DNA from: a virus
Taxonomy: Duplodnaviria; Heunggongvirae; Uroviricota; Caudoviricetes
Virus record (IMG/VR): IMGVR_UViG_2526164690_000021
Strand: one strand, 5' to 3'
DNA length: 12,182 nucleotides
Part shown: piece by piece, positions 4,802 to 5,750 of the stretch
Layout of the letters: every line of letters starts with the position of its first letter
How positions within the stretch are numbered: position 1 is the first letter of the stretch
The notes under the pieces: model-generated
What the model was told of the DNA's origin: nothing
Seen by the model: only the letters and a program-made list of their open reading frames with translations
The model's database searches: none
Translations under genes and position numbers: made by a program

Positions 4802-4824
4802 AAAAAAATCCCTCGAAAGAGGGA
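4802..4824 (-). terminator. Intrinsic terminator of the repressor-antitoxin-toxin operon
   Basis: Minus-strand RNA: UCCCUC-UUUC-GAGGGA (stem 4809-4814 / 4819-4824, GAAA-type tetraloop) followed by U7 (4802-4808); 19 nt after the toxin stop. Confidence 0.6.
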
Positions 4825-4842
4825 GTATGAAAATTGTTCAAC

Positions 4843-5130
4843 TCAGATAGAGAAGGGAAATTGTCGCCGAGAATGTGTCACGCTTACAATCTCAATGCTT
4901 GAAGCAGCTACTCTGTACAGGATTATGTAGTTAGGGTGGGTCACGATCTCTCTCAATCCAGAAACCCGTTCGCTTGGTGGATATAAGTACGGATGCTCAG
5001 ATAGAGGTAATACCGATGTTTCAATGCGTATTTTTAGTCTACGTGCTGCCGGTGGGTTCTCCTTGGCGATGTAAGTTATGATCTGGCGCAAATCATCGCG
5101 AGCAGACGGTAGCCATAAAATGGGTAACAT
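4843..5130 (-). CDS. parE2: ParE/RelE-family type II toxin (95 aa), ParE2-like
   Basis: Translation MLPILWLPSARDDLRQIITYIAKENPPAARR...EHPYLYPPSERVSGLREIVTHPNYIILYRV...SVTHSRRQFP matches the ParE fold pattern; start overlaps the antitoxin stop (TAATG at 5128-5132). Symbol is a family-level call from memory. Confidence 0.85.
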   Translation of the reverse strand: MLPILWLPSARDDLRQIITYIAKENPPAARRLKIRIETSVLPLSEHPYLYPPSERVSGLREIVTHPNYIILYRVAASSIEIVSVTHSRRQFPFSI

Positions 5131-5321
5131 TACTCGCTCTTGTTAGTTACAGCAATTTGAGCAATAAGATTTTCCATTTCAGCCATTACCTCGTCATGTG
5201 GAATTGCGGGGCGAGTGTCTGCAAGGCTTGACGTTACTTTAGTGCGCAACCATTCGTTGTAACTGTTTTCTTGTTCGGTAGTTTCGAATTCTGAAACTAT
5301 CGGAGAAAGGGCTGTACCCAT
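5130..5321 (-). CDS. paaA2: PaaA2-like antitoxin (63 aa)
   Basis: Translation MGTALSPIVSEFETTEQENSYNEWLRTKVTSSLADTRPAIPHDEV... resembles the PaaA2 antitoxin of the prophage paaR2-paaA2-parE2 module as I recall it; GAGGAG 7 nt upstream of ATG 5321-5319. Confidence 0.8.
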   Translation of the reverse strand: MGTALSPIVSEFETTEQENSYNEWLRTKVTSSLADTRPAIPHDEVMAEMENLIAQIAVTNKSE

Positions 5322-5348
5322 GGCATAACTCCTCTTCTTGTACTGTGG

Positions 5349-5750
5349 TCACGCCCGGCGGCTTTTTTGTGCCGCCAGCCACCTAGCAATGGTTTCTTCC
5401 ATTGATTTTTTCTTGTCTTTGATTTCTTGAAGCATTTTTTCTTGGTCTTCCTCAGGAAACGCACTAAAAGCTTGGAGCAGTTCGCGTTGGCGAGGACCAA
5501 TTTTCATCGTGTCAGGGGTGAAAATTTGCTCACACTCTTCAGGAGGCAATAAAAACCAATGCAATGGATGCCCTGAAACCTCAACCAGTTTATCCAAACT
5601 TGAGGCTTTAGGTGTAGCCTTACCGCTGACCCATTGTTGAACAGTTTGTTGTGTCACACCAATTCTACGGGCAAGCTCAGCCTGGCTCCATCCAGTTTCC
5701 TGAAGAAGCTTGCTGATTCTGTACATAGATACTTCTAGGGCGCTCATCAT
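5349..5750 (-). CDS. paaR2: HTH (XRE/Cro-CI type) repressor, RacR/PaaR2-like (133 aa)
   Basis: HTH segment WSQAELARRIGVTQQTVQQWVSGK; divergent from the ydaS-like gene; first gene of a three-gene operon with the antitoxin and toxin. The AT-rich stretch before the ATG lacks an SD, so the mRNA may be leaderless. Confidence 0.85.
   Translation of the reverse strand: MMSALEVSMYRISKLLQETGWSQAELARRIGVTQQTVQQWVSGKATPKASSLDKLVEVSGHPLHWFLLPPEECEQIFTPDTMKIGPRQRELLQAFSAFPEEDQEKMLQEIKDKKKSMEETIARWLAAQKSRRA

Follow-up and report, generated by a model that had tools for sequence, protein, structure and literature searches.

A repressor gene followed by a paaA-parE toxin-antitoxin pair in the immunity region of prophage Sp4/CP-933M

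In a viral sequence of 12,182 nt (IMG/VR record IMGVR_UViG_2526164690_000021; hereafter the window, i.e. the whole stretch analysed), a phage repressor gene is followed on the same strand by genes for an antitoxin and a toxin. The question raised by this arrangement is whether the three genes form one operon and, if so, whether the control of lysogeny is thereby tied to addiction. A large part of the answer lies in the identity of the locus. The region is, with high confidence, the published paaR1-paaA1-parE1 operon carried by Sp4/CP-933M, a lambdoid prophage of enterohaemorrhagic Escherichia coli (EHEC), and this confidence extends to its interpretation as an addiction module. Positions 1-11501 of the window match Sp4 in E. 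coli O157:H7 Sakai at 99.88% identity, and the PaaR, PaaA, ParE, YdaS and YdaT proteins are each 100% identical to ECs_1069, ECs_1068, ECs_1067, ECs_1070 and ECs_1071 of that strain, respectively; the paaR1 gene is also present, at 100% identity, in EDL933. The locus is the same as that of O157:H7 (CP-933M in EDL933, Sp4 in Sakai), with no differences in the coding sequences, while the spacers of PL and PR contain homopolymer runs that are one base shorter in the window than in the two reference strains compared.

The three-gene toxin-antitoxin (TA) operon is an already known system, here rediscovered, and not a new one. The O157:H7 operon was reportedly named and characterised by Hallez et al. 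in 2010 as a three-component TA system. Two such operons, PaaR1-PaaA1-ParE1 and PaaR2-PaaA2-ParE2, are located on O157 prophages (PMC5086665), and CP-933M is described as bearing a homologue of paaR2A2E2 (PMC8630535). The latter operon, from CP-933P, has been shown to work as an immunity switch of the CI/Cro (YdaS)/CII (YdaT) kind that includes an addictive TA pair (Jurenas 2021, PMC8630535). With the locus named in 2010 and the regulation of its paralogue worked out in 2021, the region has little value as a discovery. Its use is rather one of calibration, as the initial annotation had rebuilt, from the raw sequence, the published architecture, in which PaaA and ParE share the lysogenic transcript with the repressor. 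The additions made here are modest, and consist of the terminator stems of variant loci, the 40-bp palindromes at PR and PL, the mosaic recombination boundaries and the comparison with the Qin dicA region, which has no TA pair. Gene content and order, the gene overlap, the terminator, the operator palindromes and the identity to the named locus are results of the present sequence analysis; co-transcription, cognate neutralisation, post-segregational killing and the bistable switch are taken from the literature, where they were mostly established on the paralogue.

The repressor gene and the immunity region

The first gene of the block, paaR1 (5750..5349, minus strand, with its TGA stop at 5351..5349), encodes a DicA-like helix-turn-helix (HTH) repressor of 133 aa, matching Pfam HTH_3 (2.3e-12) and Phage_CI_repr (7.4e-5). 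The NCBIfam DicA profile covers the protein nearly end to end (residues 11-130), with a value of 8.4e-14 that falls under the cutoff of the model. PaaR1 is 28% identical to DicA of K-12, the C-terminal motif ELL..F.A.PE..Q being common to both, and is laid out as a variable N-terminal HTH followed by a conserved C-terminal part of about 50 aa. No Peptidase_S24 domain, as expected for LexA-like autocleavage of the lambda/434/P22 type, was found in the Pfam search. On the basis of this absence, of its length and of its DicA-like C-terminus, PaaR1 was grouped with the short repressors of the DicA/Gifsy type. A search of the repressor against a copy of the PDB yielded no PaaR structure, but only generic matches to the HTH of the 434 repressor.

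A candidate -10 element of PRM, TAAAAT, was read from the sequence at 5757..5762 (minus strand), 6 nt upstream of the paaR1 ATG (5750). No Shine-Dalgarno sequence precedes this ATG, and the paaR1 mRNA is probably leaderless, as is that of lambda cI and as demonstrated for paaR2 (PMC8630535). A second candidate -10 element, TACAAT, is found 60 nt further upstream, at 5825..5820.

The intergenic region between paaR1 and the divergently oriented ydaS-like gene is 107 nt long (5751-5857) and contains a palindrome and repeated half-sites. The ydaS-like gene (5858..6130, plus strand; Pfam YdaS_toxin, 8e-10) is the Cro analogue and the adjoining ydaT-like gene (6114..6539, plus strand; Pfam YdaT_toxin, 1.2e-9) the CII analogue. 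Cro-like function has been demonstrated for the YdaS homologue of CP-933P (PMC8630535), and a CII-like function is described for YdaT (PMC8630535, PMC9986795). The OR palindrome, ACTGT-N9-ACAGT at 5797..5815 (plus strand; 40-nt arm 5787-5826), overlaps a putative PR-like promoter for ydaS at 5801-5829 (plus strand; TTGATT at 5801-5806, a 17-nt spacer and TAGGCT at 5824-5829); this promoter was not picked up in the strict promoter scan, and its hexamers were read from the sequence. At the opposite end of the block, the same ACTGT-N9-ACAGT palindrome lies inside a 40-bp inverted repeat (OL, 4752-4791, minus strand), overlapping a PL-like promoter at 4777..4749 (minus strand; TTGACA at 4777..4772, a 17-nt spacer and TAGATT at 4754..4749), detected by the promoter scan with 10 matches out of 12. 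Promoter and palindrome are laid out in the same way at PR and PL, which parallels PR933P and PL933P of the paralogue, and the two 40-nt arms are 83% complementary. One strong palindrome is present at each of OR and OL, compared with three or four sites in CP-933P.

Beyond PL, the first gene of its operon is ydfA (DUF1391; 4412..4567, minus strand; Pfam DUF1391, 3.3e-28), which is annotated in loci L001 and L002 and has a start codon that aligns with that of K-12 ydfA; PL is predicted to drive the ydfA-ydfB...DicF-dicB genes. In the paralogue, the corresponding promoter, PL933P, is repressed by PaaR2 and YdaS (PMC8630535).

Repressor and cro-like genes diverging across a short operator region, with a second set of operators over PL, are the organisation of a lambdoid immunity region, and PaaR1 is the CI analogue of the Sp4/CP-933M prophage. 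That the system was first described as a 'three-component TA' (PMC5086665, PMC4803016), and that PaaA lacks a DNA-binding domain, would fit a PaaR1 dedicated to TA regulation, in effect the DNA-binding half split off from an antitoxin, instead of the prophage immunity repressor. This is very unlikely, in view of the homology of PaaR1, over its whole length, to DicA, the repressor of a Qin prophage in which no TA pair adjoins it, and of its position, facing a Cro-like gene across the operator region with a second copy of the palindrome covering PL. Moreover, PaaA-ParE pairs outside enterobacteria are mostly found without a PaaR-like upstream gene, and the paralogous PaaR2, itself a CI analogue, has ydaS-ydaT and PL as its primary targets (PMC8630535).

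Taking PaaR1 as the immunity repressor, the locus can be compared to paaR2-paaA2-parE2 of CP-933P/Sp12 (PMC8630535; PDB 3zbe, 5cw7). Gene order, TA families, terminator, PL and the flank on the ydfA side are shared, YdaT is 86% identical and the C-terminal 50 aa or so of the repressor are conserved. In contrast, PaaR is only 34% identical, its N-terminal DNA-binding part being unrelated, and YdaS, PaaA and ParE show 18%, 62% and 65% identity, respectively, by global alignment; the operator consensus is GTTTAGTAA in CP-933P and ACTGT-N9-ACAGT in the Sp4 window. As PaaA1 does not neutralise ParE2, nor PaaA2 ParE1, according to the account given in PMC4803016, and as repressors and operators have diverged, the two loci are regarded as heteroimmune paralogues.

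The toxin-antitoxin genes and the extent of the operon

Downstream of paaR1, a 27-nt spacer (5322..5348, minus strand) carries a ribosome binding site, AGAGGAG at 5335..5329, 7 nt ahead of the ATG of paaA1 (5321..5130, minus strand). The latter encodes a PaaA-family antitoxin of 63 aa, matching Pfam PF21217 PaaA2 (5.6e-19) and the PaaA2 structures 3zbe/5cw7 in the PDB (1.4e-20). PaaA2 was the sole match in the Pfam search, where no DNA-binding domain was found; in this PaaA differs from classical type II antitoxins, which have such a domain, regulation being left to a separate repressor. The third gene, parE1 (5130..4843, minus strand), encodes a ParE-family toxin of 95 aa, matching Pfam ParE_toxin (2.9e-17) and, in the PDB, ParE2 of E. 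coli O157 (5cw7_B, 3e-36); fold and Pfam family are those of the toxins of classical parDE systems (RK2; Vibrio cholerae parDE2). The stop codon of paaA1 overlaps the parE1 start in a TAATG at 5132..5128. The locus thus has a PaaA-family antitoxin gene with a same-strand ParE gene directly downstream and a DicA-type HTH gene directly upstream, the composition of a three-component TA system.

The block is closed by an intrinsic terminator at 4824..4802 (minus strand), with a TCCCTC/GAGGGA stem and a TTTC loop followed by T7; the hairpin forms in the fold, and the PL-like promoter starts 25 nt further on. Taken by itself the terminator pattern is unremarkable, with 3 occurrences found against 1.8 expected in shuffled sequences and a fold z-score of -1.37. 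Five divergent variants of the locus (L003-L006 and phage Evi), however, have a hairpin and a T-run at the same position with differing stem sequences, and this conservation supports the call. The initial annotation, in which the repressor, an antitoxin resembling PaaA2 and a ParE toxin share a single operon with a TAATG overlap and a terminator before PL, is borne out in all its sequence elements, which lie on the minus strand.

A different reading of the same gene order is that repressor and TA pair are merely adjacent, with a paaA1-parE1 promoter located inside paaR1 and a repressor transcript ending earlier. The feature that might provide such an end is a GC-rich 7-bp hairpin at the 3' end of paaR1 (5356-5377), in a region with a minimum free energy of -28.6 kcal/mol (z = -1.96), but no U-tract follows it. 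An independent TA promoter or an internal terminator was rejected as a candidate. On the operon strand the terminator scan detected no terminator-like site between paaR1 and paaA1, and over the 300 nt ahead of paaA1 no promoter-like site was detected at either strict or relaxed thresholds. In addition, for this family a sigma-70 promoter in front of paaR is reported to drive the whole operon as one transcript (Hallez 2010, cited after PMC4803016). Mere adjacency is hence very improbable, and the sequence is consistent with co-transcription of paaR1-paaA1-parE1 from a single promoter. The hairpin at 5356-5377 could modulate read-through or mRNA stability.

The toxin had also been annotated as a gyrase poison, a claim which is not supported by data on its closest characterised homologue. 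Membership of Pfam ParE_toxin would be in line with a classical poison of the RK2 ParE or V. cholerae ParE2 kind, and overexpressed ParE2 of the paralogue co-localises with the nucleoid and induces the SOS response, from which its authors infer a probable interference with topoisomerases (PMC8630535). EcParE2, however, which is the closest solved homologue and is 65% identical to ParE1 by global alignment, shows no detectable binding or direct interaction with GyrA (PMC5086665; bioRxiv 10.1101/2025.07.24.666505; PMC8630535). It is just 15% identical to VcParE2, according to the literature, without a clear equivalent of the key Trp25, and, as the work comparing the two toxins points out, residues of the EcParE2 clade are difficult to match to it one to one. 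ParE1 itself has a single tryptophan, W6, and none around AKENPPAA, the alpha1-alpha2 loop by homology, as positioned by eye. Classical gyrase poisoning by ParE1 is accordingly considered unlikely.

Lysogeny, addiction and the place of the pair

In the mechanism proposed for the locus, PaaR1 would bind the 40-bp palindromes over the -35 regions of PR (ydaS/ydaT) and PL (ydfA...DicF, dicB), and paaR1 would be transcribed leftward from the PRM-like promoter, probably as a leaderless message. The same transcript is expected to run on through paaA1 and parE1 and to end at the hairpin and T7, 25 nt before PL, which places the TA pair in the slot taken in lambda by rexA-rexB. The antitoxin would be translated from its own ribosome binding site, and the toxin probably by translational coupling through the TAATG overlap. 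PaaA1, having no DNA-binding domain, would neutralise ParE1 by wrapping around it, and is expected to be labile to proteases (ClpAP/ClpXP), like PaaA2. Upon loss of the immunity region the longer-lived ParE1 would then poison the cell, so that the pair would act as an addiction module stabilising the prophage or its immunity region.

The coupling of lysogeny control to addiction, anticipated in the initial annotation, agrees with published work on the locus and on its paralogue (PMC8630535). An unstable plasmid is stably maintained by the CP-933P locus through post-segregational killing, and a bistable switch of the CI/Cro type has been shown for it (PMC8630535). The annotation had further supposed that the toxin would be unbalanced by either loss or induction of the prophage. 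The former holds for the paralogue, where toxin release was seen only upon physical loss of the locus. The latter does not, since the immunity switch released no toxin: transcripts of the TA genes are made in either immunity state, and the fractions of SOS-positive cells, 0.88% and 0.95%, do not differ (PMC8630535). By stabilising the prophage, the pair could influence how prophage pools evolve in EHEC.

The position of the pair may be appreciated by comparison with two other immunity regions. The Qin dicA-dicC region of K-12 resembles the locus in its DicA-like repressor of two-part layout, in the facing cro-like gene and in the ydfA-ydfB-ydfC-DicF-dicB side, but has no TA pair, ydfA being found 166 nt after dicA; the direct succession of dicA and ydfA in Qin indicates that the TA pair was inserted into a rex-like slot. 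The lambda cI-rexA-rexB region likewise places accessory genes expressed in the lysogen on the PRM transcript, between the repressor gene and PL. The Rex proteins, however, are unrelated to PaaA and ParE, and lambda CI has an autocleavage domain, which PaaR1 lacks.

Phage defence is a role of many type II TA systems. A pair in the exact slot of lambda rexAB might hence be mainly a Rex-like module for superinfection exclusion or abortive infection, carried by the lysogenic transcript and triggered by an incoming phage, which may shut off host or prophage transcription or degrade PaaA1. Such a role would be compatible with addiction, and it would gain from the deposited genome of phage Evi, which holds an apparently intact repressor-antitoxin-toxin block, and from the behaviour of the paralogue, whose toxin is activated by no immunity state, leaving room for another trigger. 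On the other hand, the PADLOC models gave no match to PaaA1 or ParE1, the repressor being matched through generic HTH regions only, the literature search found no phage-challenge data, and the sole phenotype demonstrated in the family is post-segregational killing with plasmid stabilisation. As the main function of the pair, defence therefore appears improbable, and addiction is preferred.

Variants, mosaicism and distribution

The architecture formed by the repressor-antitoxin-toxin block, the terminator, PL and ydfA recurs in five heteroimmune E. coli variants and phage Evi. The parE DNA of the window is 73-80% identical to that of L004, amid flanks that are 95-100% identical, which places recombination breakpoints inside the block. 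Strict co-variation of TA type and immunity type was rejected, as L004 has the same PaaR (98%) with a diverged ParE (86% at the protein level); L006 contradicts it as well, the N-terminus of its PaaR being unrelated (33% identity overall) and its TA pair similarly related (84%). As a separate observation, about 8 nucleotide differences separate paaA of the window from that of L004, and 7 of them are non-synonymous.

The breakpoints inside the block, together with the conservation of the C-terminal part of paaR across immunity types, would fit a second role of paaA-parE, as a guard expressed in the lysogen and serving either Rex-like abortive infection or the policing of swaps of the immunity region: recombinants that exchange the immunity cassette might lose the cognate antitoxin and die. 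A guard function of this kind is rather unlikely. It is also only partly new, as Jurenas et al. 2021 (PMC8630535) had already hypothesised a second role of the pair.

By alignment of PaaA against one genome per species, 36 loci were found in Alpha-, Beta- and Gammaproteobacteria, in a collection whose E. coli representative does not carry the locus, so that little weight attaches to its absence from other Enterobacteriaceae. The loci outside E. coli include members of Bartonella, acetic-acid bacteria and sphingomonads. In the 32 of the 36 loci for which the ORF context was resolved, no PaaR-like upstream gene was found; the upstream genes, where present, are unrelated, two resembling plasmid replication proteins by eye and the rest being hypothetical. 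From these gene contexts, the linkage to PaaR looks specific to the lambdoid prophages of enterobacteria. Among 5426 complete E. coli genomes such a pair is present in 833 (about 15%), mostly from Shiga-toxigenic lineages. Linkage within the block is tight: of 511 genomes carrying paaR1, 507 have it complete.

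Identity and organization of the operon

Three closely packed ORFs are located on the minus strand within 4802-5750. The first, paaR1 (5750..5349, stop TGA at 5351..5349), encodes a 133 aa repressor matching the Pfam HTH_3 (2.3e-12) and phage CI repressor HTH (7.4e-5) profiles, while no peptidase domain was detected by Pfam profile search. Over almost its whole length the product fits the NCBIfam DicA profile (8.4e-14, under the model's cutoff), and it shares with K-12 DicA 28% identity and the C-terminal motif ELL..F.A.PE..Q. A spacer of 27 nt, holding AGAGGAG 7 nt 5' of the next ATG, separates it from the antitoxin gene paaA1 (5321..5130, minus strand, 63 aa), whose only Pfam match is PaaA2 (5.6e-19) and whose product matches the solved E. 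coli O157 PaaA2 in PDB (1.4e-20). For the toxin gene parE1 (5130..4843, minus strand, 95 aa), the matches are Pfam ParE_toxin at 2.9e-17 and, among solved structures, O157 ParE2 at 3e-36; its ATG overlaps the paaA1 TAA in a TAATG (5132..5128, minus strand).

By Megablast, many Shiga-toxigenic E. coli carry the region with 99.8% identity. Window positions 1-11501 are 99.88% identical to prophage Sp4 of O157:H7 Sakai; PaaR1, PaaA1, ParE1 and the YdaS-like and YdaT-like proteins are 100% identical to ECs_1069, 1068, 1067, 1070 and 1071, respectively, and the repressor gene of EDL933 is identical to paaR1. Two prophage-borne three-component systems, PaaR1-PaaA1-ParE1 and PaaR2-PaaA2-ParE2, are described in O157:H7 (PMC5086665), and CP-933M carries a homologue of the CP-933P system (PMC8630535). 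Locus L003, another E. coli immunity variant, is of the CP-933P type, its repressor starting with MQKKE and matching the sequenced PaaR2 N-terminus. The window therefore contains the other copy, paaR1-paaA1-parE1, a system already known and identical to a named, published locus.

Transcription signals and regulation

The account of Hallez 2010 given in a review (PMC4803016) describes a sigma-70 promoter, located upstream of paaR, that transcribes all three genes of such loci together and is repressed both by PaaR and by the PaaA-ParE complex, and reports no cross-neutralisation between PaaA1 and ParE2 or PaaA2 and ParE1. In CP-933P, PaaR2 is a CI analogue translated from a leaderless mRNA, YdaS corresponds to Cro and YdaT to CII, and a PL-type promoter with OL operators is located beyond the TA pair; the immunity region is bistable, and the paaR2-paaA2-parE2 locus stabilises a mini-F plasmid via post-segregational killing (Jurenas et al. 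2021, PMC8630535).

Operators, promoters and gene layout of the window fit this scheme. The sequence is consistent with the single operon proposed in the initial annotation: scans of the 300 nt preceding paaA1 detected no promoter-like site, relaxed thresholds included, and none of them placed a terminator between paaR1 and paaA1. Six nt separate a TAAAAT hexamer from the paaR1 ATG, which is not preceded by a Shine-Dalgarno sequence; both features suggest a leaderless paaR1 mRNA. An alternative -10 is located further upstream.

Downstream of parE1, a hairpin (TCCCTC/TTTC/GAGGGA) is followed by T7 (4824..4802, minus strand). Neither the motif count (3 observed, 1.8 expected) nor its fold (z = -1.37) is beyond chance alone; its function as a terminator is supported because five divergent locus versions keep a hairpin and T-run in this place while their stems differ in sequence. 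The top promoter-like site of the region, a PL-like TTGACA-17-TAGATT (4777..4749, minus strand), follows 25 nt past the terminator. On the plus strand, the -35 and spacer of the PR-like promoter TTGATT-17-TAGGCT (5801-5829) are overlapped by a 40-bp palindrome built around ACTGT-N9-ACAGT; a second copy of this palindrome (83% match) overlaps PL in identical register.

Against 17 nt in the window, the PL spacer (4755-4771) measures 18 nt in strain 493/89 and in variant L004 and 19 nt in Sakai. The PR spacer (5807-5823), likewise 17 nt here, measures 18 nt in Sakai and 493/89. The lengths vary through the homopolymer runs that also contain the one-base deletions at 4759-4766 and 5814; the variation, if true, would alter early promoter strength between otherwise identical prophages. 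Within the final paaR1 codons, just 5' of the paaA1 ribosome site, a 7-bp GC-rich hairpin, GGCGGC..GCCGCC, with an 8-nt A-rich loop (5356-5377, minus strand) has no U-tract downstream. The surrounding 81 nt fold at -28.6 kcal/mol (z = -1.96), and the hairpin might influence mRNA stability or the PaaR to PaaA-ParE expression ratio.

The structure initially annotated (ORFs, TAATG overlap, terminator, PL) proved correct in every detail, and its interpretation was largely right. The toxin had been called gyrase-poisoning, which is not supported for this clade: no direct contact of O157 ParE2 with GyrA was observed, though overexpression induces SOS. Nor is the idea that induction unbalances the toxin borne out by the paralogue: transcription of its TA genes occurs in either immunity state, SOS-positive fractions show no difference, and release of the toxin was observed solely upon DNA loss (PMC8630535). 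PaaR-type repressors lack a RecA-cleavable domain and resemble DicA and Gifsy repressors, so induction, if any, would probably take another route. Abortive infection is a speculative possibility raised by the position of the TA pair, which no PADLOC model matches.

Immunity variants and the Qin prophage

In five heteroimmune E. coli variants (the window and L003-L006) and phage Evi, the order repressor, paaA, parE, terminator, PL, ydfA is maintained, with ydaS-ydaT on the opposite side. The variant repressors keep a conserved C-terminal ~50 aa and diverge in the N-terminal DNA-binding part, together with the operators. DNA identity profiles revealed mosaic boundaries within the repressor-TA block: L004, for instance, is 95-100% identical to the window except in parE (73-80%). 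A given immunity type is therefore not tied strictly to one TA type. The L004 repressor is 98% identical to PaaR1, and over L004 3001-3479, aligned to window 4843-5321, paaA DNA is about 96% and parE DNA 73-80% identical, which points to a recombination breakpoint close to the paaA/parE junction. Of about eight differences in the paaA DNA, seven change the amino acid, possibly reflecting diversifying selection on the antitoxin.

K-12 Qin has the order dicC, dicA, a 166-nt gap and ydfA-ydfB-ydfC-DicF-dicB, with no TA genes. This makes the TA pair an insert at the position taken by rexAB in lambda, as suggested by Jurenas et al. (PMC8630535). The window also contains a full-length DicF small RNA gene (3121-3172, minus strand; Rfam RF00039, 77 bits), placed, as in Qin, within the PL operon, with the ydf genes on one side and dicB on the other. 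A C-rich stretch, ACCCACCCCGCCCCACAGAACGCC..., just downstream of PL (4700-4745, minus strand) is near-invariant in all five immunity types and in phage Evi, while the adjoining operators differ between types; it delimits the exchangeable immunity cassette on the left, and the PL transcript may carry it as a conserved leader element. In the phage Evi deposit (LR597642.1), the PaaR2-type regulator and paaA are annotated and parE (L043 4159-4437) is not; its translation looks intact.

Assembly features and distribution

Homology to Sakai Sp4 and strain 493/89 ends at 11501. The start of the remaining segment (11502-12182) is presumably IS10 terminal sequence, and a full-length RNA-OUT is located at 11547-11616 (minus strand; Rfam RF00240, 98.8 bits); the source strain probably had an IS10/Tn10 insertion in the prophage. 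Relative to Sakai and 493/89, all indels are one-base deletions in the window (4759-4766, 5814, 6583, 7818, 10556, 11360), nearly all within A or T runs, a pattern suggestive of homopolymer errors made in sequencing for the source assembly, though it may instead reflect real pseudogenisation. The deletion at 7818 divides an O-like replication gene, which the references carry undivided with 1092 nt, giving ORFs 7168-7920 and 7908-8369, and that at 11360 divides an alpha/beta-hydrolase gene into 10694-11269 and 11263-11466.

The TA pair is present in 833 of 5426 complete E. coli genomes, and 507 of the 511 containing paaR1 have the complete block. Beyond enterobacteria, PaaA homologues were found at 36 loci (45-77% identity over the matched segment), mostly two-gene paaA-parE modules that have neither a DNA-binding antitoxin nor a gene resembling paaR. 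They are common in Bartonella, acetic-acid bacteria, sphingomonads and some Beta- and Gammaproteobacteria. Two of these modules lie directly 3' of a gene which, by eye, we take to resemble a plasmid replication gene.
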